A stretch of 64,000 nucleotides of DNA from Patescibacteria group bacterium (GTDB lineage Bacteria; Patescibacteriota; Patescibacteriia; SG8-24). Under the pieces are notes generated by a model. The model saw only the letters and a list, made by a program, of their open reading frames with translations. It was not told the origin of the DNA and searched no databases. The position numbers and the translations under genes were made by a program. The DNA lies in the NCBI GenBank assembly GCA_034716415.1, contig JAYEJB010000059.1, positions 68-64,067 of the forward strand. Direction: 5' to 3'. Shown here in pieces: positions 3,368 through 14,714 of this stretch (positions are counted from its first letter, which is position 1; each line of letters opens with the position of its first letter).

Positions 3368-4417
3368 TCACTGATACTGGATGAAGACGGGTTGCGGTGT
3401 CAGATCAAGGATCTCGGCCGGAGTCAATACGGGAAGGCCGTAATTGAGACGGTCGTTCTTGTAGAAAATCTTGAACCCGGTGAATTGGACCGGATACGGT
3501 ACGATGTAGGAATTGTACGAACCGAATTTCTGCCACGGTGGCCCCCAACCGTCCATGTCCATCACGACCTGCACCTCCGGCGTGGGTTCTATGCCGGTCG
3601 CGTTCGTTACCATCGGACGGGTGTAGCGATGGACGATCAGAACCTTAGGGGGCAGACCGCCGGCCTGAACCAGCCCGGACAGGTATCCGATCGCGGCGTT
3701 CACGTCCGTGGCATCGACGGAACCGACCCTCTGACCGGGCAGGCCGCCGTACTTCATGTTGAATTCCGGATCTATCGCCAGGTGCACCTGCGGCAGGACC
3801 AGATACTTCTCCAGCGCCTTGATCTCGCCCTGAAGGTCGGCCAGTCCCGACTGGACTTCCAGGATGACGATACCGTCGATCTTCTCGGCCATCGCTATCG
3901 CTTTGTCGATTTCCTTATCCGGCATGCGTAGCCGGTACTTGCCGTCCCTGCCCGCACCCGCCTGCGCGACTACCGCGATGTAATCGATCGCCGGCTGGAC
4001 CGGCGTCTCGGGGTCCGCCTCTTCCCAAGCAGCGACCTCGCGCGCCAGCATCTCAAGCATGGTCTCTTCGACGTATTCTCCGAGCACCCCCATACCTCTG
4101 GAATAGAAATTGCCGTAATACGCGACGATACGCTTGAACGGCAGGATAGCTCCGTATTCCGGATAGACTGATTCAGCCGGCCACAATTTTCCCTCATCGG
4201 TGCCGGTACCCACATCCATATGCGCGAGCCGTGCCAGCCTGCGATCATAGTCGAACCTGTCGAGCGTCGGCTCCGACGGCACGGTCGGACCTTCGACGGT
4301 CGACAACCCCCCGTCTCCGCGATCACGCAAGAGCGAAAACAGCGCGACCCCAAACAACGCCAGCGACAGCAACGCGACACCTCCAGCGACCAGCATTTTC
4401 GGAGTCGGTCTTTTCAT
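3368..4417 (-). CDS. exported/membrane-anchored hypothetical protein (possible TIM-barrel glycosidase-like fold)
   Basis: 349 aa; N-terminal hydrophobic helix after MKRPTPK; no catalytic motif I can name; function not established. Confidence 0.5.
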   Translation of the reverse strand: MKRPTPKMLVAGGVALLSLALFGVALFSLLRDRGDGGLSTVEGPTVPSEPTLDRFDYDRRLARLAHMDVGTGTDEGKLWPAESVYPEYGAILPFKRIVAYYGNFYSRGMGVLGEYVEETMLEMLAREVAAWEEADPETPVQPAIDYIAVVAQAGAGRDGKYRLRMPDKEIDKAIAMAEKIDGIVILEVQSGLADLQGEIKALEKYLVLPQVHLAIDPEFNMKYGGLPGQRVGSVDATDVNAAIGYLSGLVQAGGLPPKVLIVHRYTRPMVTNATGIEPTPEVQVVMDMDGWGPPWQKFGSYNSYIVPYPVQFTGFKIFYKNDRLNYGLPVLTPAEILDLTPQPVFIQYQ

Positions 4418-4484
4418 GTATATATAACCGCAGACTTTGTCTACCTGAAATATATCAGGTGCAGGTCATACGGTCGATATCAAT

Positions 4485-4520
4485 GAAAAACCAGACATCT
4501 GATAGATGTCTGGTTTTTCA
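4485..4520. terminator. bidirectional intrinsic terminator hairpin
   Basis: AAAAACCAGACATC-TGATA-GATGTCTGGTTTTT: 10-bp perfect stem with A-run 5' and T-run 3'; lies 3' of the 1019-aa gene. Confidence 0.7.
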
Positions 4521-4635
4521 TGGCTCAACACCGTGAACAACGTTAGAACCATAATTCAACAGAGTGAAGAATATATTTACATCCCAGATTTGAGGGAATA
4601 CGCGATGGTTTAGTTTTACCCTACCCCGCGTTACA

Positions 4636-7600
4636 CTATTTCTCTTCGACAATATCCTCAAATTTCCAGAATATACTGCTTCCTTCGCGAACCAAATCAT
4701 CAATAAGCGTATAGGTGGCCTTTTTTGTTTCCGAAGTATTGTAAAGGGTTCTTAAAGCTTCGACCCATTCGTCATCATACATGAAAGGCATACGCATTTT
4801 TTTACCGCGAACACCACCCTCAAGTAAAAACAGACGGGCAATTTCCAGAGTATCCGACGGACTCGCTTCGGCAAGTTTATCAATGTTTTTTACCAAAGCG
4901 TAATCCCAATCCAATGCACCTTGCGTTTTGCTCAAGGTTTCTTTCACTTTTTCGGCAAGCCATTTAGGGGCAAAAAGATTTTTCTCAAAATTAATCCAGA
5001 AACCAAAAGACTCAAAAATTTTCGAATCCGTATGATTTTCAAGTACCCATTCCCATAATTTGACAAGTCTTTCTCTGCTTTCCGTGTCTTTACTCAATTG
5101 CTCGTTTGCGCGCGCGTTATCACCCGATACGAACATTCTGCCAATAAAACTGATCAAATCAGCTTGTCTTTCGACATCTTTAGCCCAAAACTTTTTAAAA
5201 AGCTCGTCATCAAAACCAAATCTTTTGTGATAAACGATAAAAGCCAATGCGACATGAACCGCAATGCCTTCGTCGGGGTCTTTAAAATATCGACGATTTG
5301 AATCCTCATCGCCCGTTAAATCAAGACCGCGTTCATACAATTTCTGAAATTCGGGATCAAAGAAAATTTCCTCGTAAAGATTGTTGGCCAGATATCCTTC
5401 CCATGAGGCGAGATATAGATGTTGATTATTGCTGTCGGTGGGGAATATTTGGGGTAAAAGTCCATGAATCCAATCTTTATCGCGGAAGTAGAAAGACGGC
5501 AGATAATGACCGAACATGAACATCAAAGCGCGCGTGTTTTCTTCTTTCAAAACCGTTTCGTAAACCCCTTTGACCTCATTTTTGATTTTTACACTATCCT
5601 CTTTTGAGAATTGTTTACCGTCCTGATAAACGAATAAAACAAAAGCCTGGAAAGCCCGTCCTCGAACGGTGTTTATGGCAATGGTAAACGGATCGGTAAC
5701 TTGATACTCTTCTTTGTCTCCCGCCAAGCGCGTCTTAGAAACGGCGGTCTCCAATTCTTCGTCTTTCGGCTCGGGATCAGGTGATGAAAGCAGATACTCG
5801 ATTATATCGAATAGTTTGTCCCTATATTTATCAAAATCAATAACGGGTTGTCCTTCATTTTCATTCAACAATTCTTGTAAGACATCGGTCATTGAAGAGT
5901 GCACACCCGACCAGCTCGCAAGCCACGAGTCATAAGTTTCTCGCTCACGCTTTTCATAATCAAATGGCTTTTCTTTGCCCGATTTAACAACTGTAACCAT
6001 AATCTCGATTAAGTTATCCCAATCCAAGTCTTTAGCAACCGTTTTATCGACCTTCATGGCCTCTTGAATTCCCCTGAAAAATGAGTAAGTGTAATGTTCA
6101 TCGAGCACATCTCTATCGAAAAACAGGCTTGAGTTTGCCAGATAATCCTGCAAACGCTTGGCTATATCAGTACGTAATTGTGAACCGACTCCCTCAGCAT
6201 TAAGGGGATTAAGAAAATCATCATGAGTGTTTTGTACATGCAATACATCGGGTTTCCATTCATTTTTCAATTTTCCAATAATGTCGACGATTGTAAGTTT
6301 ATTAAACTCGTCTTGCGATATAGCTCCTCTCGGTGATACCGTTCCGCCTCGCATTGTTCCGATTGAGGTTTCGGGAATAAATTCGGAATCGCATTTGTTG
6401 CCGAAAATTTTCTCGCATTTATTCTTTTCATCCGCGGAAAGAAATTTGCAAATTGAAGACAAAATCTGCCATCCGTCACGTTTGTGCCACTGTTCTTCTT
6501 TTTTGTCTTCAAGCGATTTTCCGAAATATTGAAGTACTTTAGCGATAAATTCGCGTTGATAATCCGAATCGAAAACACCAAAAGACTTTTTTAAGGCTTT
6601 TTTATATTCGGTTCCCGACTCGATTTCATAATAATTTTTACCCGCTTCCATCACCTCAAACAATCTTGAAAACGCTTGCTTCAACCTATCTTGAAAGGCG
6701 TTCGGGCAAAGACTCATAACGTAAAGTTGCAATCGCCACATTGAACGACATTGAGGCAAGGTTTGAAAGCATTTATCGTAAATGAAAATCGCGGAATCAG
6801 TGTTTTGACAATTACTGCCGATAAGATTTTGAGCCAGTTTTTTAATACTTGCGGCCAATTCTTTGACATTTTCTCTATCTGATCTAAGGCGTTCGTTTTT
6901 CAAATCGAGCGTGAAAAAATCGACATCATAGAAAGAAAACATATCTTCAATCTCGAAAACGGCTTTTTCGTCGGATCTTTTATCACCCAATTTGACGATC
7001 TCGGATATTGTCAGACAGGCAAGTTCAAGTGCTTTTTCGGCATTTTCATCGTTAACGTTAACCAGATATTCAAAGATCTTGGTGTAAGATAAATCTTTAA
7101 AGTAGAATGGATTATCGGCAAGATAACCGTGCGAATTTTTATTGAAGGCCTCTTTCGTTTTTACCGCAAACACAGCTTTCGCCAGAATCAATAAACCGTC
7201 ATATTTTTTATTCTTTGCCAAAGTCGCAAACATTTTTTCATATTCAGAGCCCCAATCGTTGAAAATACTCATCAGCTGAACCCATTTGTCGTCACGAATT
7301 TTAACAACCATCCTTGCCAATTCTTCCGCAGGTAATGAACCGCAAATATGCAAAAATTGATCGACAACTTCGGGATTGAAATTATCTTTTGAAATTTCAA
7401 CTGAAAGCATACTATCAACCACTTCTTTCGGCTTCTTATCGGCAACCTTAACGAGATAATTCAATTCGGGAGTGCGATAACCGTATCGTGTGGGATCTTC
7501 GGATTTTTCTTTTATGACATTCAGAAAACCGTTTTGCCATAGAAAATCGAGCCAATTCTCATCGGCTTTTGTGTAAAAGTATTGCTTTGCATCGAGATTC

Positions 7601-7695
7601 TCTGAAATCAAATTTGACACAGCTTGAATCTGACTACCATCAGGCGCTTTTGACAATATTTCATCTATTCTTTTATGTAATTCAATCTGAGTCAT
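4636..7695 (-). CDS. large (1019 aa) predicted all-alpha hypothetical protein, last gene of AT-rich island operon
   Basis: Long uninterrupted ORF in AT-rich DNA; no Walker A, DExH or other catalytic motif seen; Lys/Glu/Asp/Phe/Tyr-rich helical composition. Confidence 0.7.
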   Translation of the reverse strand: MTQIELHKRIDEILSKAPDGSQIQAVSNLISENLDAKQYFYTKADENWLDFLWQNGFLNVIKEKSEDPTRYGYRTPELNYLVKVADKKPKEVVDSMLSVEISKDNFNPEVVDQFLHICGSLPAEELARMVVKIRDDKWVQLMSIFNDWGSEYEKMFATLAKNKKYDGLLILAKAVFAVKTKEAFNKNSHGYLADNPFYFKDLSYTKIFEYLVNVNDENAEKALELACLTISEIVKLGDKRSDEKAVFEIEDMFSFYDVDFFTLDLKNERLRSDRENVKELAASIKKLAQNLIGSNCQNTDSAIFIYDKCFQTLPQCRSMWRLQLYVMSLCPNAFQDRLKQAFSRLFEVMEAGKNYYEIESGTEYKKALKKSFGVFDSDYQREFIAKVLQYFGKSLEDKKEEQWHKRDGWQILSSICKFLSADEKNKCEKIFGNKCDSEFIPETSIGTMRGGTVSPRGAISQDEFNKLTIVDIIGKLKNEWKPDVLHVQNTHDDFLNPLNAEGVGSQLRTDIAKRLQDYLANSSLFFDRDVLDEHYTYSFFRGIQEAMKVDKTVAKDLDWDNLIEIMVTVVKSGKEKPFDYEKRERETYDSWLASWSGVHSSMTDVLQELLNENEGQPVIDFDKYRDKLFDIIEYLLSSPDPEPKDEELETAVSKTRLAGDKEEYQVTDPFTIAINTVRGRAFQAFVLFVYQDGKQFSKEDSVKIKNEVKGVYETVLKEENTRALMFMFGHYLPSFYFRDKDWIHGLLPQIFPTDSNNQHLYLASWEGYLANNLYEEIFFDPEFQKLYERGLDLTGDEDSNRRYFKDPDEGIAVHVALAFIVYHKRFGFDDELFKKFWAKDVERQADLISFIGRMFVSGDNARANEQLSKDTESRERLVKLWEWVLENHTDSKIFESFGFWINFEKNLFAPKWLAEKVKETLSKTQGALDWDYALVKNIDKLAEASPSDTLEIARLFLLEGGVRGKKMRMPFMYDDEWVEALRTLYNTSETKKATYTLIDDLVREGSSIFWKFEDIVEEK

Positions 7696-7697
7696 AA

Positions 7698-8240
7698 TTA
7701 TTTATTTTTGAATTTAAAATATTTTCCCAAATGCAGAATAAAACCAGTACATAGTTTATCAAAATCTTCTTCACTGATAACTTTAAGAGATTTGTTATCA
7801 GGATCTAGTAAAGTATTAGCATGTCCAATTGCCGAATCTTTAAAGTGTGCAAAATCATTAAAAAAATCTTTATAATTACGTATTGTCTCACACACCTGCT
7901 TTGCTTCATCTGAATCACTTCTTTTGGGTACGCATTTCAGAAATTTTAAGCAATTAGCTTCGAAATGCCCGTCAACCAACTCTCGAATTGATCCAGAACA
8001 ATGCTCTTTCCAAAATTTATCGTTTGATTTGGTATCCTCACTTTTAAATATGCTTTGGGCATTAAAGATAATATCTTCCGGTTTTACGTTTTTTTTATAA
8101 TTACCCATAATCCAGACCAAATGAATGTTAACGTTAACAATTTCAATCACCGATTTTGGTAGATTAACAACATCGTATTCCGCACCATTTGTGGAAATAC
8201 TTTTTTGTTCCGCTAATATTGGATCAAGGGTTTTACTCAT
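7698..8240 (-). CDS. 180-aa hypothetical protein (island operon gene 3)
   Basis: ORF; its start ATG overlaps the Vsr stop as ATGA, and its stop lies 2 nt before the 1019-aa start; no family recognised. Confidence 0.6.
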   Translation of the reverse strand: MSKTLDPILAEQKSISTNGAEYDVVNLPKSVIEIVNVNIHLVWIMGNYKKNVKPEDIIFNAQSIFKSEDTKSNDKFWKEHCSGSIRELVDGHFEANCLKFLKCVPKRSDSDEAKQVCETIRNYKDFFNDFAHFKDSAIGHANTLLDPDNKSLKVISEEDFDKLCTGFILHLGKYFKFKNK

Positions 8241-8650
8241 TTATTTTCTTGCAACTTATTTAGTATTTTTTCCACGGTTTTATCAAATTTTTTCTTTATT
8301 TCATGCTCCCAAATTCTGATAACCGTCCAGCCTTTATTTTTGTAATACCGAGTGACTTCTTTGTCCCGCTCTTTGTTGCGAGCCATCTTGGCCTCCCAGA
8401 ATTCTCTGCGGGTTTCTGGCATTGAACCGTGCTCTTTGCAACCGTGCCAAAAGCAAGAATCCACGAATATTACGGTTTTCAATTTCGCCAGTACGATATC
8501 GGGTTTTCCAAAATGTTTGGTCGAATTTTTGCGGTATCGATAACCGGCTTTCCATAACTCTTTACGCAAGGCGATCTCGATTTTACTGTCCTTATTTCGG
8601 ACTTTGGACATTATTTCGCTTCGTTTTTGTTTGGAAAACTTATCGGCCAT
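8237..8650 (-). CDS. vsr: very-short-patch-repair (Vsr)-like endonuclease
   Basis: 137 aa; GKPDIVLAKLKTVIFVDSCFWHGC matches the Vsr catalytic core (GKPDIV..AIFVHGCFWHGH); C-terminal W..IRIWEHE region. Confidence 0.85.
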   Translation of the reverse strand: MADKFSKQKRSEIMSKVRNKDSKIEIALRKELWKAGYRYRKNSTKHFGKPDIVLAKLKTVIFVDSCFWHGCKEHGSMPETRREFWEAKMARNKERDKEVTRYYKNKGWTVIRIWEHEIKKKFDKTVEKILNKLQENK

Positions 8651-8653
8651 AAT

Positions 8654-8893
8654 TTATTTCGTAAAGCGAACTTGCAAATTAAGTTTGATGAACAAGTCAC
8701 CGTTTTCCTCATAAACGGTTCCGTATCCGTGACGAGTTGCACTCGGCGACTCCATTCTGGTGTGATTGAACAAATAATCCCTGAAAGCTTCGGCATTGTA
8801 CAAGTGATAACAAACCACCTCGCCGTCTTCGCGAACCACAATAACTCCTCCGTGAGCGCGCAAATTACCATCCCAAGCACTTGCGGGTACCAT
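8654..8893 (-). CDS. 79-aa hypothetical protein (island operon gene 1)
   Basis: ORF stop lies 3 nt upstream of the Vsr ATG; intermediate GC; no family recognised. Confidence 0.4.
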   Translation of the reverse strand: MVPASAWDGNLRAHGGVIVVREDGEVVCYHLYNAEAFRDYLFNHTRMESPSATRHGYGTVYEENGDLFIKLNLQVRFTK

Positions 8894-8901
8894 ATAAAAA
8901 T

Positions 8902-8966
8902 GGGGTCAGGTCTTGTATTTTAACATTTTTGATATCTGGTAATGATACTATGTTAGACTTGACCCC
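8902..8966. repeat. Inverted repeat GGGGTCAGGTCT / AGACTTGACCCC bracketing a possible TGnTAAAAT -10 for the island operon; third direct copy at 9234-9246
   Basis: 13-bp imperfect inverted repeat separated by ~40 bp immediately 5' of the 79-aa start; GGGGTCAGGTCTT recurs at 9234. Confidence 0.5.
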
Positions 8967-9040
8967 GAAGCACATTCCCGCGTCAGCAAAATGCTCGCCA
9001 AGGAGCGGGAGAGGGCAAGAGTCAAGATGTGACCCCTATT

Positions 9041-9205
9041 TTAGTGAAGTATTGCCCAAAGACCAATAGCGACTGGCCATAAAAAAACGATATAAAGAAA
9101 AGTAAAAATATTTTCTGGAAACGGTGCGTCAATATATCCGACCCGCCAGAAAAATACTCCTATTGCAAGATAGCTTATTGCGATTAAAAATATTTTTATC
9201 TTCAT
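9041..9205 (-). CDS. 54-aa hydrophobic (two-helix) small ORF, below the ORF-track length cutoff
   Basis: My own translation: MKIKIFLIAISYLAIGVFFWRVGYIDAPFPENIFTFLYIVFLWPVAIGLWAILH; AT-rich; flanked by GGGGTCAGGTCT direct repeats. Confidence 0.25.
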   Translation of the reverse strand: MKIKIFLIAISYLAIGVFFWRVGYIDAPFPENIFTFLYIVFLWPVAIGLWAILH

Positions 9206-9410
9206 CACTCACTTTATTAAATTTTGCTTGGGGGGGGTCAGGTCTTTAATTGTCGGATTTTCGACCTTAAAATCTAGCCAAAATGGTACTCACTGCAATT
9301 TTTGAGACCCGACTCCACACGATAAACAATTTAGCATAGCTACAACAAAAAACCACCACAAAGTGATGGTTTTTTGACTGAACGCATATGGGTCGCCACA
9401 CACGTTCACT

Positions 9411-9444
9411 CATGGCTCCGAGGTGACGATTCGAACCGTTCTCC
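9411..9444 (-). other. degenerate copy of the tRNA-Asn 3' end (putative att-site remnant)
   Basis: TGGCTCCGAGG is identical to the acceptor/CCA region of tRNA-Asn at 16360-16370, followed by a T-arm-like GATTCGAAC; does not fold into a full tRNA. Confidence 0.5.
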
Positions 9445-9484
9445 TGAAATTCAGAACCTAGCTCTAAGAATCTCGTGGTTCGCC

Positions 9485-12400
9485 TTAACCAACCGGCATG
9501 AACAGCCGGTAGAGAAAGGTCCAAGCGTTGAGGGTGACATACCTCTCGGAGAGGGAGAGTGGAGCGGTCCGGGCGGGCTTTATCTTACCGTCCGTGACGC
9601 GCACGCCTCTCGCCTTCATCTCGGCGACATCGAGACCCTTGGCCTTCACGAACTCCTCGGTCATGGGCGTCGGGATGCTGCGACGGAGGTGCTCCGTGCG
9701 ACCGTCGTGGGTGACCTCGATGTCGATGCCCGTGCCGCATTCCCAGCAGGAGCCGATGTCGGTCAAGGTGAACTGTAGGACCTTGTAGTCGGTGTTGACC
9801 TCCGTGGAGAGATTCTCGTAGTCGGCAACGAAACCTTCCGGCGGTTCGACCGTGACCGTGACGCCCCAGTCCCCTTCCGAGTCGAAGACGAACGGGTAGA
9901 GTTCCGTGGTGTCATCCCACTCGATGTACTCCGGTTCGATGACGTAGAGAACCGAGCCATCGTGCTTGGATGTCTTGGCCGGGACGGAAGTGCCGTCCGC
10001 GCGGACGATGACGTTGAGGCGCTTATCGACGGTGTCGCCGTTGGCGAGAATGCCGGAGTGGACGCCGGCCACGACCGTGGTCTGCGGGTCTTCGGAGACA
10101 AGGAGATATTCACCCGGATCGAGGGTCATGAGAGCGTGACCGTCGGATCCGGTGGTGCCGGTGCCGTCAGGGATACAGGTCGAGAGGACGGTGGAGTAGT
10201 CGTGCGGATTGTATCCGATGGTGTCGGCGCAGGAACTGGAGATTTTGGTGTATGCGTTGACTGTGGCACCGACCACGGGCTCCTTGGTGCTGCCAGGTTC
10301 GTTCCCCTGCCCCACGGTGTGACGGCGAAAGAGCACGGAGAGCTCAGCGGAGGACAAGTCGATGGTAATCTCCAGCGTCTGTGTAACTTCCTCGTTCCCG
10401 GCGTTGTCCGTGGCGCCAAAGTGGAGGGTATGGGTGCCTTCTTCGGTGAGTTCGATGGAGCCCGAGTACTCGCTCCAATTGAGGCCGCCGTCGGTGGAGT
10501 ACAGGAGTGAGGCGACGCCGGTGCCTGAAGGGCCGTCGTCGGCTGTGAGGACCACTGTGACCGGGGTGACGTACGTGACGCCGTCAGGGGCGAGAGTGCC
10601 CGTAACCTCGGCGATAGTGACCGGTGCGGTGGTATCGACCACTCCCGGGGCGATGCTGACGTCCGTGGTGCCGGAAACGGCATGGACGACCGCCTCGTCA
10701 GGCTCGACTGACTGGGCTTCAAGAATCGTTGAGGTGTATATCCCCGAGGCCGGATCGATGTACCGGGCATAAATGTCGTATGAGTCGGAGGTATCGGGAA
10801 GCTGCGCGGCGATGTCCGGATTCGCTGCCAGGAACTCGGCGTTGTCGTGCGCGGAGACCACGTGGCGGCACCCTTCATTCCCCTCCGGCGGGAAGAAGAT
10901 CCATTCCGGAGCACCTTGGTTGTCGCCATTCATGATGACGTCATCGATCTCCGCCTCATACTCGCCGGTTTCGTAGTTCATGCCGACGTGCCGCCCGTCA
11001 TCGCAGTACACATGGAGGTCGAGGTCGGGCTGCACAGAACCTTCAACAAACGGGGCATACCTGATCTGCTCGAACGGCCAAGCTGAACGGAACGGAGCAT
11101 CATCGATAAATCTAGCTAAAGCACCGAACACGACGAATGTAATCACCATGATGCCGATCACAACACCGATTACCATCTTCAGACGTTTAATACGTCCCTT
11201 CCCTTGTTCAGAGCGATTCTTTCTCGTTAAGACGACGATTGCGACAGCTGACAGCAAAACCACTAAAATCGCGAGTTCGATAATCAACAACCCAAGAACA
11301 TAGCCCGACGGTTCAACGCGATAGACGTCCTCCACGACAAGCGTACCCTCCTCCTCTGTACCCAGCACCACATTGCCGTCGGGGTTAATGATCAATGTCA
11401 AACCCTGTAAAATTGCAAGCGGCCTTAAGACTTCCCCGACAACAACGCCCGGCAAATTCAATGCGAACCAAGCTGCATCCATCTCACCGATAACAGCCTC
11501 AATCTCCAGTTGGCCATCAACGGCCCTCAGATCATTGGCCTTGATCGTCACGAGATGTGAAAAATCATTATAGCTCTCATGTATCGTGGGACTAAGAAGA
11601 CCGTCATTGGCTGTCATCAACGGATCGACAATACCGTTGCCGGGTATCGTCACTACGTCTGACTCATCGTTCACGTAATACACGACAAGATGATTATCAT
11701 CGATTCCGGGCAACGATGTGTCCCAGTTACCGTATTCTTCGTTACTGGTCCTTGATTCAATCAGCAGATATTCCGATTCAGCCTGCGAAAGATCTAACCG
11801 AAGGACTTCGTCTCCGAAGGAAGACGAGGAAAGCGATTCGACCCAAACATTACTGGGGTAATTCCCTGATCCGTATCGCGATTCAGTCAACCAACCTAAA
11901 TTTATCCTGCTATAAGCGGTCATCGAGGCGGGATTCGATCCACCATCATTCTTACTGGCAGTCGCCATGACACCCCAAGCCCTGACATCACCACGCCTAT
12001 ACAGATCGGGCAGTAAATCTGAATCGGGCGACATAAGTGGCTTCATCACGTGCCCTAACTCATGTACCCATACACCCAGCGGTTCGGTTTCAGCGACTGT
12101 AATGAAATGACTGTCCGGATCATGGATGACGGCAGCAAACGAATGAATCAGGTCGGTCTGATTCTCATGCTCTTTACCGTCGCCGGCATGCACCAACAGG
12201 ACGGCATCAACGGTGGTCGTATCAATACCAGATACCGCTAAAGTATCTGATACAAGAGCCAGTCTTGATGATGGGCTATTTACACCATAATCATTTAAGT
12301 AGCCGGGTAAGTCATACCAATCGCCCGCATTATCCATTATTAATGGTTCGATATTGACTGCACCGAACGAGTTCTCCCGAAAATAATCATTCACGCAGAG

Positions 12401-14080
12401 CAGAAGATCCTCATAGTATTCCCTCCCATGTCCGTCAGCGTAGGTCTTCTCCTCGATGAGCTTGCAGGGCTGGGCGGTGATAGGTCCGGATTCGTGCTGG
12501 ACGTCAGCGAGATCAGCCAGGATGACCGCGACCGTGATGATCTGCGCATCGACTGTCTTCCACGGTTCGAAAGCGACGTTGTCGGAGACGGTATCACCGA
12601 GACCGTCCGGATTGAGCATGCCGTGGTAGGGACCTGATGCGTCACCCCACCAATTGTCGGTCGCGGTGAGGGTGCCGGACGGAGAGTTGTTCAGGGCGCC
12701 GTAATGGACGTTGTCGTGGATACTGCCATCCGTGACCGTGGCGTTCCCACCGGCCATGGCGTAACCGTAGAGGTTGTGATCGATCTCGGTGCGGGAGACG
12801 GTCGCCGTGCCGCCGTATTGGAGGATGCCGTACTCGAGGGAGTCATGGACATGCGAATCGGAGATCAAGAGGGAGATGTTCGTGCCATCCAGGGTGACGC
12901 CGCCGCGACAGGGTCCGGGTGAGCAGACGACTCCGGCGTAACGGATGTCGACGTAATTGATGGTTCCCGAGGTGTTCGGTCCGAAGACGATACCGTCCCA
13001 GTCTCCCGGGGCGGGGGTGGTGACGCTACCGTCGCTGTTCGTATCACCTCCGACCGTGTCGTCATGGATGGAGGTGAAGACGACCGGTGCGGCTGAGGTA
13101 CCGTTCACGACGAGGGTGCCGTCGTTCTGCAAGGTGCTGAATTGTTCGCCCTTGACGACAGTGCCGGGATTGATGGCGAGAGTGTGATATTGCGGAATCG
13201 TAAAACGGGTGCCACCGGGGTGCGTAGCGTCCTCTATTATATATGGAAGGTCCGCGCTCCAGGTCTGGTCGTGGGTGAGGAAACCGTACATCAGGAGTCC
13301 GTTCCGGGCACTGCCGGTGCTGATGTTACCGGAAGCCGAGACGAGGTCCACCCCGCCGTTGATACGAGCCGAGGCGCTGGCGTTCGCGGTGAAGGTGTTG
13401 TTCGTGAGCGTCAGGGTACCTTCCCAAGCGTTGGCGTTCACGCCGTAATAGTCGTTGTCGTGGATGATGTTGTCGGCAAGGGTCGCGGTGCCATGGGCGA
13501 GAGAGAAACCGTACGGCTGATGATCGATCTCGGTCCCGGCGACGGTCACCAGGCCGTCGTACTGGACAATGCCGTATGTCAGAGAATCATGGACGCGTCC
13601 GGAGATGATGTCGATCGGACCGGTGACGATGGTGATGCCGCCACGACAGATTCCGGAACAGGGCGCGCCGGCGTAGCTGATATCGGCGTGGACAAGGGTG
13701 CTCTCTGCACTGCCGGAATCGAAGAGGATGCCGTTCCAGCTTCCGGGAGTCGCGGAGAGAGAGGTGAAGACCGCCGGGGCGGACTCGGTACCGTTGACGT
13801 TGAGACTGCCTTCGACGGTGAGGCCGGTGCCGGTCGCAAACTCGACGGTGACGCCGGATTCGATGGTCAGGGTCGCTCCAGCCGGAACGATGGCGTCGGA
13901 GTCGACCGTGTACGGACTGCTGGCGGCGTTCCAGACCGTGCCGTCGGGGATGGTGCCGGAGACGGGTGTGGCTGCCCGTGCCGAAAAGACGGGCAATAAC
14001 AAGAACAACAGCAGAGACGTTGCAGTCGAAAAGATAAACTTGCGACGGATGAAGGATGATATGTCTTTTACCATATACAT
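9485..14080 (-). CDS. giant (1531 aa) surface protein: signal peptide, two duplicated right-handed beta-helix modules, M6 (InhA/PrtV)-like HExxH metallopeptidase region, 2 TM helices, Ig-like/Big-type domains
   Basis: N-terminal hydrophobic signal; two ~150-aa paralogous blocks (..CRGG.T..G..I....V.DS..YGI.QY.G..TV..TEIDH..YG..); VHELGHVM then AWGVMATAS..AYSRINLGWL resembling the M6 family; hydrophobic segments LGLLIIELAILVVLL and MVIGVVIGIMVITFVVF. Confidence 0.8.
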   Translation of the reverse strand: MYMVKDISSFIRRKFIFSTATSLLLFLLLPVFSARAATPVSGTIPDGTVWNAASSPYTVDSDAIVPAGATLTIESGVTVEFATGTGLTVEGSLNVNGTESAPAVFTSLSATPGSWNGILFDSGSAESTLVHADISYAGAPCSGICRGGITIVTGPIDIISGRVHDSLTYGIVQYDGLVTVAGTEIDHQPYGFSLAHGTATLADNIIHDNDYYGVNANAWEGTLTLTNNTFTANASASARINGGVDLVSASGNISTGSARNGLLMYGFLTHDQTWSADLPYIIEDATHPGGTRFTIPQYHTLAINPGTVVKGEQFSTLQNDGTLVVNGTSAAPVVFTSIHDDTVGGDTNSDGSVTTPAPGDWDGIVFGPNTSGTINYVDIRYAGVVCSPGPCRGGVTLDGTNISLLISDSHVHDSLEYGILQYGGTATVSRTEIDHNLYGYAMAGGNATVTDGSIHDNVHYGALNNSPSGTLTATDNWWGDASGPYHGMLNPDGLGDTVSDNVAFEPWKTVDAQIITVAVILADLADVQHESGPITAQPCKLIEEKTYADGHGREYYEDLLLCVNDYFRENSFGAVNIEPLIMDNAGDWYDLPGYLNDYGVNSPSSRLALVSDTLAVSGIDTTTVDAVLLVHAGDGKEHENQTDLIHSFAAVIHDPDSHFITVAETEPLGVWVHELGHVMKPLMSPDSDLLPDLYRRGDVRAWGVMATASKNDGGSNPASMTAYSRINLGWLTESRYGSGNYPSNVWVESLSSSSFGDEVLRLDLSQAESEYLLIESRTSNEEYGNWDTSLPGIDDNHLVVYYVNDESDVVTIPGNGIVDPLMTANDGLLSPTIHESYNDFSHLVTIKANDLRAVDGQLEIEAVIGEMDAAWFALNLPGVVVGEVLRPLAILQGLTLIINPDGNVVLGTEEEGTLVVEDVYRVEPSGYVLGLLIIELAILVVLLSAVAIVVLTRKNRSEQGKGRIKRLKMVIGVVIGIMVITFVVFGALARFIDDAPFRSAWPFEQIRYAPFVEGSVQPDLDLHVYCDDGRHVGMNYETGEYEAEIDDVIMNGDNQGAPEWIFFPPEGNEGCRHVVSAHDNAEFLAANPDIAAQLPDTSDSYDIYARYIDPASGIYTSTILEAQSVEPDEAVVHAVSGTTDVSIAPGVVDTTAPVTIAEVTGTLAPDGVTYVTPVTVVLTADDGPSGTGVASLLYSTDGGLNWSEYSGSIELTEEGTHTLHFGATDNAGNEEVTQTLEITIDLSSAELSVLFRRHTVGQGNEPGSTKEPVVGATVNAYTKISSSCADTIGYNPHDYSTVLSTCIPDGTGTTGSDGHALMTLDPGEYLLVSEDPQTTVVAGVHSGILANGDTVDKRLNVIVRADGTSVPAKTSKHDGSVLYVIEPEYIEWDDTTELYPFVFDSEGDWGVTVTVEPPEGFVADYENLSTEVNTDYKVLQFTLTDIGSCWECGTGIDIEVTHDGRTEHLRRSIPTPMTEEFVKAKGLDVAEMKARGVRVTDGKIKPARTAPLSLSERYVTLNAWTFLYRLFMPVG

Positions 14081-14360
14081 GGATGTTGAGACCTAAACCT
14101 GCATTGATTGTATCACAGCCGCTCTAGATCAACCGAGATGCGGCTCCACCATGAACATAAGTGATATGCTCTGTGGAATTATTGGCTGACTACCGTGCGT
14201 GGGACTCGAACCGTCAAATAAGTCTAAAATTTCAGATTCCTATCCGAGTGCCGATTTCTGCATAAGATATGACGAGTGCAATCGCCTGCGAAACGAGGCC
14301 TGAAAATATGCAAACTGCTAATGCTGCCCCCCCCCCGACACTTTCGAAAGGAAGACCAAG

Positions 14361-14714
14361 TTGTCTGACTCCCTGGTTGATATCCCTCTTGTCCATGCGC
14401 TTTATGATACATACGCTTGCTGGCACCAGCTTGCACTTAAGTTCCCGAAGTCGCAGCGCTACACCCTCGGCCGGAGGTGCGATGACTATATGCTCTCTGT
14501 ACTGGAACTCGTCCTTGAAGCGGCTACGGCCGGCGAACCGAAGAAAAAAGAATCGGCTATCGTCGCCGCAAGCGCCAAGCTCGACACACTTAAGCTGTTG
14601 GTCCGGCTCTCCAAGGACTGTAAGTGTATCTCACACCGGCACTACCAGGCCATGGAGACCCGCCTTTACCGCATCGGCAGGATGACGGGCGGCTGGCTCA
14701 AGTCGATGCGATAG
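14361..14714 (+). CDS. four-helix-bundle protein (23S rRNA intervening-sequence-type protein family)
   Basis: 117 aa; TLGRRCDDYMLSVLELVLEA and LKLLVRLSKD..ISHRHYQAMETRLYRIGRM pattern typical of the TIGR02436 four-helix-bundle family. Confidence 0.65.
   Translation: MSDSLVDIPLVHALYDTYACWHQLALKFPKSQRYTLGRRCDDYMLSVLELVLEAATAGEPKKKESAIVAASAKLDTLKLLVRLSKDCKCISHRHYQAMETRLYRIGRMTGGWLKSMR

Follow-up and report, generated by a model that had tools for sequence, protein, structure and literature searches.

The window analysed here comprises 64,000 nucleotides of a Patescibacteria group bacterium (assembly GCA_034716415.1, contig JAYEJB010000059.1, positions 68 to 64,067 of the forward strand), and contains an AT-rich island in which four open reading frames (ORFs) are packed on the minus strand ahead of a strong hairpin terminator. 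In order of transcription they encode a 79-amino-acid (aa) protein, a 137-aa very short patch repair endonuclease (Vsr), a 180-aa protein and a 1019-aa protein, separated by 3 nt, a 4-nt ATGA overlap and 2 nt, respectively. The guanine-cytosine (GC) content is 0.32-0.43 in 500-nt windows between approximately 4500 and 9500 and close to 0.6 in both flanks; the island core (4636-8893) has a GC content of 0.386, the remaining window 0.562. An initial annotation, made from the letters alone, had already described this discontinuity, the ORF layout and the terminator; all three are real, and its figure of 27-40% GC is slightly low. We find that the island is almost certainly the 3' part of a mobile HpaII-type (CCGG-class) restriction-modification (R-M) cassette, surviving as a 5'-truncated remnant, and that its last two genes belong to a conserved and wholly unannotated two-gene family.

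The truncation is seen in the first ORF. Its product, initially assigned to no recognisable family, is the C-terminal fragment of an HpaII-family type II restriction endonuclease (REase). It matches positions 283-359 only of the 359-position Pfam RE_HpaII profile (PF09561, E 9e-33), where a full-length enzyme has ~358 aa, and likewise covers the C-terminal end of the PADLOC REase_II model (287-366 of 366). When the intact 358-aa REase of a related locus, L001, is compared with the window by tblastn, residues 280-358 alone are recovered, at 94% identity, and the start of the 79-aa ORF corresponds to an internal methionine (M280) of the intact enzyme (...AALG-M-VPASPWDG...). Homology at the DNA level to both L001 and a second locus, L068, starts exactly at 8893/8894, the ATG of the 79-aa ORF; from there the window is continuous with L068 over 8894..7060 (85% identity) and aligns with L001 over 8893..8238 and 7715..4636 (~90%).

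These two loci carry intact cassettes. L001, whose large protein (P0001) is the nearest to that of the window at 90% identity, is ordered HTH_17, C5 DNA methylase (300 aa), RE_HpaII (358 aa), Vsr (135 aa), a 200-aa gene and a 1019-aa gene, with a Toprim primase upstream. In L068, which holds the closest relative of the 180-aa protein (P0121, 93% identity), a C5 methylase, RE_HpaII (358 aa) and Vsr precede a 180-aa gene and a large gene. The ancestral cassette comprised, in order, a helix-turn-helix (HTH) gene, a C5 methyltransferase, an REase, Vsr, a small helical protein and a large solenoid, of which the window has lost the methyltransferase and the first 279 REase codons. No trace of REase residues 1-279, of the methylase or of the HTH gene was found in 8894-9484, and in agreement with the initial annotation no DNA methyltransferase was detected anywhere in the window (tblastn with C5, N6/N4 and Eco57I seeds, and motif scans). 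With its methyltransferase absent, its REase truncated and CCGG unavoided in host DNA (501 sites), the window holds no functional type II R-M system. Since the 79-aa ORF is a 5'-truncated REase fragment, the region consists of a gene remnant, Vsr and a conserved two-gene module, and the four genes do not form the single functional module that had been proposed for them.

Features of the island and its edges (window coordinates)
Feature	Position	Strand	Description
REase remnant, 79 aa	8654..8893	-	Last 79 codons of an HpaII-family type II REase gene
Vsr, 137 aa, intact	8237..8650	-	TIGR00632, PF03852, PADLOC Vsr
Small partner protein, 180 aa	7698..8240	-	50-sequence alignment; AlphaFold2 helical bundle
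Large partner protein, 1019 aa	4636..7695	-	HEAT/ARM-like alpha-solenoid (predicted); highly conserved, unannotated family
Strong hairpin terminator, operon end	4470..4534		31-nt inverted-repeat arms, then a T-run
Conserved non-coding element, ~125 nt, cassette 3' end	4517..4640	-	nhmmer, 5 loci
Junction segment in place of the lost methyltransferase and REase 5' part	8902..9264		Two direct repeats around a 55-aa ORF; GC 0.41

The 137-aa protein is a bona fide Vsr, as first annotated, scoring 135.1 bits against TIGR00632 (cutoff 97.85) and 94.4 bits against PF03852 (cutoff 27, E 4e-27), and matching the PADLOC Vsr model; NCBI likewise names it a very short patch repair endonuclease. Vsr repairs T:G mismatches made by deamination of 5-methylcytosine, and the initial annotation accordingly held that a nearby dcm-type gene would undo its reading of Vsr as part of a new system. 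Such a partner is in substance what we find, deleted from the window rather than nearby and present in its relatives: a C5 methyltransferase and an HpaII-family REase lie directly upstream of Vsr in the closest relatives, L001, L068, L005 and L026. The window Vsr is 92.5% identical at the amino acid level to that of L001, which is itself 3' of both genes, and its ratio of nonsynonymous to synonymous substitution rates (dN/dS) is 0.07-0.11. R-M systems are recognised to include Vsr proteins as accessories, designated "V." (PMC4081073). Because intact relatives carry the methyltransferase and REase upstream, and because of this recognised role, the window Vsr is the ordinary accessory of a lost C5 methylase, now orphaned and no part of a new system. 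The case is one of textbook R-M cassette decay following horizontal transfer, and calls of a "solitary Vsr" need to be checked for remnants of flanking genes.

Three observations indicate that the island was acquired horizontally by a Patescibacteria chromosome, as had been supposed. Its GC content of 0.39 matches the donor-like contigs L001 (0.405) and L068 (0.389) rather than the host (0.56); its DNA is 85-90% identical to cassettes from unrelated samples; and the module and REase are absent from 80 of 80 metagenomic loci bearing an orthologue of the flanking 349-aa host gene. These orthologues are merely 50-66% identical, such that insertion boundaries cannot be defined and no exact empty site could be assigned, and we treat the comparison as supporting evidence rather than as an exact empty-site test. 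The island also avoids CCGG (2 sites observed, 13.3 expected), in contrast to host DNA (501 observed, 491 expected), and the same avoidance is seen in the module of L001 (1 versus 8.7) and L005 (1 versus 5.9). Measured against the intact cassettes, dN/dS is 0.03-0.12 for every gene of the island, the REase tail among them, which makes the truncation young on the scale of the 10-15% divergence. Together, CCGG avoidance and dN/dS fit a recently arrived CCGG-class cassette.

The broader distribution of these genes identifies the 180-aa and 1019-aa genes as the conserved unit. Among scored 90%-identity clusters, 366 homologues of the large protein were found at E<=1e-3; the 120 listed are 48-90% identical to it over almost their full length, and none of these has a meaningful name or a Pfam domain. 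Patescibacteria supply most of the homologues, Omnitrophota and Elusimicrobia others, and a scan of GTDB representative genomes yielded 66 loci that extend to Caldilineaceae, Nitrospirales, Anaerolineae, Bdellovibrionales and further groups. In 41 of 64 loci the solenoid gene directly follows a gene of 170-260 aa (median gap 1 nt), and in a further 12 of the 64 the small domain is fused to the solenoid N-terminus (1157-1205 aa). A 180-aa-type gene is thus adjacent or fused in nearly all loci, whereas the four-gene co-occurrence that had been anticipated fails generally: Vsr is found within four genes upstream in just 4 of the 64, L001 and the window included, always with a C5 methyltransferase in the non-decayed loci, and Vsr, HpaII REase and C5 methylase each lie near the module in merely 2-4 loci on the same count. 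A small-domain profile searched against 1.84 billion representatives recovered 251 clusters at 50% identity, in which complete matches are either standalone or, in 39 of the best 150, N-terminal in proteins 1110-1313 aa long; matches of intermediate length are probably truncated ORFs, and other architectures of the small domain were looked for among the complete matches without any being seen. Neither module protein matches a Pfam, NCBIfam, PADLOC or PHROGs family, NCBI annotates the large one as a hypothetical protein, and no prior description of the family was found in the searchable literature, which does not prove that none exists. A phage or viral origin was considered and rejected, as no match was obtained in 50,697 phage records or in IMG/VR. 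The family is large, highly conserved, cross-phylum and wholly unannotated, and resides mostly in bacteria of the candidate phyla radiation (CPR), whose defence repertoire is poorly known.

The AlphaFold2 (AF2) model of the large protein (mean predicted local distance difference test score, pLDDT, 87.7) is nearly all helical and describes a HEAT/ARM-like alpha-solenoid. No enzymatic domain was found, as the initial annotation had anticipated for an all-alpha protein; there is no sequence relative in the PDB or PHROGs, and dN/dS is 0.11-0.12. Across both module proteins, no NTPase family is matched in Pfam or NCBIfam, as a STAND P-loop would require, nor SIR2 in Pfam or PADLOC, as would be expected of a DSR2-like protein. 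Distant homologues of the large protein are encoded on haloarchaeal plasmids and Legionella conjugative plasmids. Among them is WP_247996002.1 of Halocatena salina (1493 aa; plasmid NZ_CP096023.1, L071:5433-9914), which has an nSTAND1/AAA-type NTPase at ~180-340 and whose residues 598-1378 align to residues 76-897 of the solenoid (hhalign probability 97.4%, E 1.4e-11). Its gene adjoins an ApeA-HEPN gene in a defence-island context. The alignment makes the solenoid a homologue of the C-terminal region that occupies the sensor position in an NLR-like conflict protein. The N-terminus of the Halocatena protein was assessed as a relative of the small partner and rejected, as it bears no similarity to it. 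Plasmids of Haloferax, Halobiforma and Natronorubrum also encode STAND-type "ATP-binding proteins" of ~1500 aa, in which the C-terminal 800 residues are homologous to the solenoid. On Legionella pneumophila conjugative plasmids (e.g. NZ_CP016871.1; L070:7107-9476) a 789-aa hypothetical protein shares 22% identity with the C-terminal half of the solenoid; its gene is flanked by IS256 and IS3 transposases, and it is possibly a truncated relative in a culturable host.

The small protein is modelled by AF2 as a helical bundle (pLDDT 81; predicted template modelling score 0.78). Across 50 diverse small-partner sequences, R86 and H132 are the only invariant residues, with A82, S84 and E87 nearly so, within the motifs A-x-S-L-R-E and A-H-H. 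The succession of predicted helices, in which R86 closes helix 77-88 and H132 falls at the end of helix 111-131, would place both residues at the same end of the bundle. The two residues are 46 positions apart and the Rx4-6H motif is not conserved in the 50-sequence alignment, so membership of the HEPN superfamily is unsupported. Recurrent sub-threshold matches to PF18165 (pP_pnuc_1), which we take to model the conserved-Arg helical domain of the pPIWI-RE nuclease subunit, were obtained for 19 of the 50 sequences; they lie over the invariant-Arg region and cover only about the first third of the profile. In three loci (L049, L052 and L046) the small-partner genes encode 255-282 aa, including an extra N-terminal extension of 95-120 residues that is hydrophobic in L052.

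The small gene is hypervariable and shuffled with respect to the large one. Between the window and L001, DNA identity is ~90% on either side of the small gene and undetectable across it; the small proteins encoded there share 28% identity. Over 861 locus pairs, small-domain and solenoid identities are nearly uncorrelated (Spearman 0.20), and in some pairs solenoids that are 83-90% identical accompany small domains that are 16-24% identical. Three small-gene subtypes (28, 9 and 7 loci) each occur with several R-M types, and on these grounds we rejected the possibility that the subtype is an adaptor specific to R-M type. The uncoupled identities, and the spread of subtypes across R-M types, therefore indicate that the small gene is swappable, fast-diverging and unmatched to any particular restriction enzyme.

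Beyond the HpaII-type cassettes, the module is associated with R-M operons of several kinds. Among 106 proteins encoded by the two genes upstream of the module, R-M families dominate the Pfam annotations, with N6_N4_Mtase (12), MmeI_Mtase (8), Eco57I (7), ResIII (7), N6_Mtase (6), Vsr (4), TaqI_C (4), DpnII (3), RE_HpaII (2), EcoRI methylase (1) and Type_ISP_C (1), while the 112 proteins of the two downstream genes give a heterogeneous mix. Local seed profiles, whose counts are lower bounds, detect an R-M gene within four genes upstream in 27 of the 48 loci with enough upstream sequence, versus 2 of 51 downstream; with one further locus carrying an EcoRI-type methylase, approximately 58% of loci are R-M-linked. 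In the 17 loci in which the nearest upstream gene is a same-strand R-M gene, its median gap to the module is 2 nt, a spacing that implies co-transcription with the R-M operon. Serine recombinases, an integrase and a primase occur in several module loci, and the occasional neighbours of R-M-free modules include integrases, resolvases, a Cap15 effector and AbiEii-like ATPases. These data describe a module that is autonomous, yet often closes R-M operons (types II, IIG/IIL and III) at their 3' end.

The edges of the island carry further features. On the host side, two direct repeats of GGGGTCAGGTCTT with ~18 similar bases (8902-8932 and 9234-9264) bracket a 332-bp AT-rich segment encoding a 55-aa, apparently two-transmembrane protein (9041-9208, minus strand). 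The repeat occurs in only two copies in the window (0.09 expected by chance); one lies 8 nt from the REase truncation point, and the other lies at the island's host-side edge, close to the terminator of the adjoining 1531-aa gene (9346-9376). The repeat is absent from all related loci searched and the segment between 8902 and 9264 shows no similarity to any of them; the arrangement suggests cassette-like junctions. A separate assembly from another run (L069; Logan SRR26901924) contains the truncated island at 100% identity, corresponding to window positions 8927..4388. It breaks off within the first direct repeat at one end and, at the other, after ~30 nt of the flanking host gene, break points that hint at strain-level variation at both island edges.

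At the opposite edge, the conserved non-coding element recurs at L029:1986-2110, L038:13813-13938, L003:14034-14141 and L017:6492-6600, always downstream of the solenoid gene and on the same strand. It overlaps the solenoid stop codon by 4 nt in the window and in L029, and lies 0.7-1.8 kb past the stop, beyond extra genes, in L038, L003 and L017. Long invariant runs are present, e.g. CTCAAATCTGG. A structured RNA was considered and rejected, as there is no Rfam match and no covariation or conserved RNA structure; the element may be a marker of where the cassette ends, or a site of recombination or protein binding. The host is a Patescibacteria metagenome-assembled genome (MAG), and the genes around the island are chromosomal (RecQ, RpoD, DnaG and two tRNAs). 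Lesser dips in GC content, to 0.48-0.50, occur at 11000-12500 and 14000-14500, in or just upstream of the gene for a 1531-aa beta-helix/Ig-like surface protein (9485-14080), at a predicted transmembrane/linker region. A weak Rfam RNAI match at 9345-9453 on the minus strand (24 bits, gathering threshold 47, E 0.29) overlaps the terminator hairpin of that gene and is almost certainly a chance match.

We tentatively propose that the small protein and the solenoid constitute a sensor-effector defence module, a reading that we favour over its rivals yet hold to be possible rather than established. The HEAT-like solenoid would act as sensor or scaffold, binding a trigger and holding the small partner; it is proposed as sensor because it is homologous to the sensor region of a STAND/NLR-like NTPase. 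The small partner would be an output or adaptor domain, possibly a nuclease, and is proposed as effector because of its N-terminal "effector" position in fusions and its invariant Arg and His. Usually co-transcribed at the 3' end of R-M operons, the module would provide a second layer that moves together with restriction. The data show the anatomy of the island, its truncation, the R-M linkage, and the conservation, fusion, shuffling and fold of the module; what we infer is the defence role itself, which part senses or acts, and any nuclease activity. The initial annotation's suggestion of an uncharacterised defence system is plausible for these two genes, and not for Vsr as effector, given its accessory position in L001, L068, L005 and L026. 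A more elaborate version, which we consider unlikely in its entirety, is that of an undescribed immune module abundant in Patescibacteria/CPR, lineages reported to be largely without CRISPR. In this scheme the module would be a restriction-coupled second layer, in which the solenoid detects a phage factor or restriction product and releases a new helical Arg/His effector, be it a nuclease or another toxin, with the hypervariable small subunit as the arms-race interface.

Several points weigh against a defence role. Neither module protein has a known catalytic domain, and PADLOC-DB v2.0.0 contains no system-specific hidden Markov model that matches the 180-aa or the 1019-aa protein at E<=1. All PF18165 matches fall below threshold, the best scoring 21.3 bits against a gathering value of 26.3 (E 1.7e-4 to 2.2e-4). 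In the ~40% of loci without an R-M neighbour the module often sits amid housekeeping or miscellaneous genes, and the evidence from context derives from MAGs and metagenomes, with locus ORFs predicted by a simple in-house caller. Moreover, immune proteins usually combine a variable sensor with a conserved effector. A conserved large "sensor" and a variable small "effector" invert this pattern, and the roles may be reversed, with the small protein as the arms-race interface. If the module does function in defence, it would contribute a sensor-effector family with a new effector fold, and would be a tangible example of immune layers that are physically tied to restriction. Experiments could start directly from the naturally fused proteins and from the two invariant residues, Arg and His.

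The association with R-M operons admits a second explanation, in which the pair is an R-M accessory that guards or regulates restriction. It could, for example, respond suicidally to anti-restriction proteins or to a failing R-M system, in the manner of PrrC with EcoprrI, or else modulate restriction during establishment in a new host. The 2-nt median gap to the last R-M gene, the strongly directional association and the travel of the module with an R-M cassette at 85-90% DNA identity are all as this would predict, and there is a precedent in PrrC, which its linked R-M enzyme keeps silent and which a phage anti-restriction factor activates (PMC1484252, PMC3458546). However, the module and each small-gene subtype pair with mechanistically unrelated R-M systems (II, IIG/IIL and III), which speaks against specific physical contact between module and restriction enzyme. 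The R-M-free loci count against this role as well, as do the survival of an intact module in the window after its R-M genes had gone and the lack of an NTPase or HEPN nuclease such as PrrC possesses. We thus regard an R-M accessory role as quite unlikely.

Persistence of the module after R-M decay, the tight two-gene layout with the small gene upstream, a patchy cross-phylum spread at high identity that indicates horizontal gene transfer, and the recombinases, primase and insertion sequence elements nearby would also suit a selfish maintenance or addiction element of toxin-antitoxin type, or non-defence mobile cargo, either stabilising R-M cassettes or hitch-hiking with them and having no immune function. 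We judge this improbable, since natural fusions such as those seen here (12 of the 64 loci, and 39 of the best 150 profile matches) are unusual for toxin-antitoxin pairs, the phage records, viral contigs and PHROG families searched lack the module, the 1000-aa solenoid is under strong purifying selection, and the STAND sensor region to which it is homologous lies in a defence context. The original proposal of a four-gene system, with Vsr as a solitary nickase effector and the 1019-aa protein as sensor, is scarcely credible and is refuted by the comparative data: the translational coupling of the four ORFs and the lack of a methyltransferase in the window gave rise to it, but the 79-aa ORF is an REase fragment, the same Vsr follows a C5 methyltransferase and REase in intact relatives, Vsr accompanies the solenoid so rarely and with a C5 methyltransferase whenever the locus is not decayed, and many of the R-M types found paired with the module have no Vsr.

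Comparison with known systems places the two halves of the island differently. Its 5' half resembles HpaII-type M.-R.-V. cassettes, in which the RE_HpaII fragment, the Vsr directly downstream, the PF00145 C5 methylase upstream in intact relatives and the avoidance of CCGG within the cassette all find a counterpart. It differs in the deletion of the methylase and of REase residues 1-279, which leaves a non-functional remnant, and in two extra 3' genes that feature in no described R-M system. PrrC and RloC are likewise encoded by non-R-M genes that lie in R-M operons or have been added to them, and they are regarded as a second line of defence. Yet PrrC combines an ABC-ATPase with a HEPN RNase and is tied to type Ic systems (PMC1484252, PMC3458546), whereas the present module has neither an ATPase nor an Rx4-6H motif and is linked to types II, IIG and III. 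In pPIWI-RE operons the nuclease subunit possesses a conserved-Arg helical domain (Burroughs et al. 2013, PMC3702460). The small protein shares with pP_pnuc_1 a helical fold, a setting in conflict systems and the recurrent weak matches described above, but is accompanied by no ZnR, REase, DinG or pPIWI partner. Among STAND/NLR-like NTPases, the nSTAND1-like Halocatena protein has a C-terminal sensor region homologous to the solenoid, although the window protein lacks an NTPase domain and the N-terminus of the Halocatena protein is unrelated to the small partner. DSR2 carries its effector at the N-terminus and, at the C-terminus, an alpha-solenoid to which a phage protein binds (PMC11850899, PMC11263360). 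The fused forms of the module, with a small N-terminal domain, an alpha-solenoid of ~1000 aa and no NTPase, are similar to DSR2 in layout and overall size, but have no SIR2 domain and no detectable sequence homology to it; their N-terminal domain is a novel helical bundle, and is usually encoded as a separate, hypervariable protein. DSR2 is the closest architectural analogue of the module, and the STAND sensor region its closest homologue.

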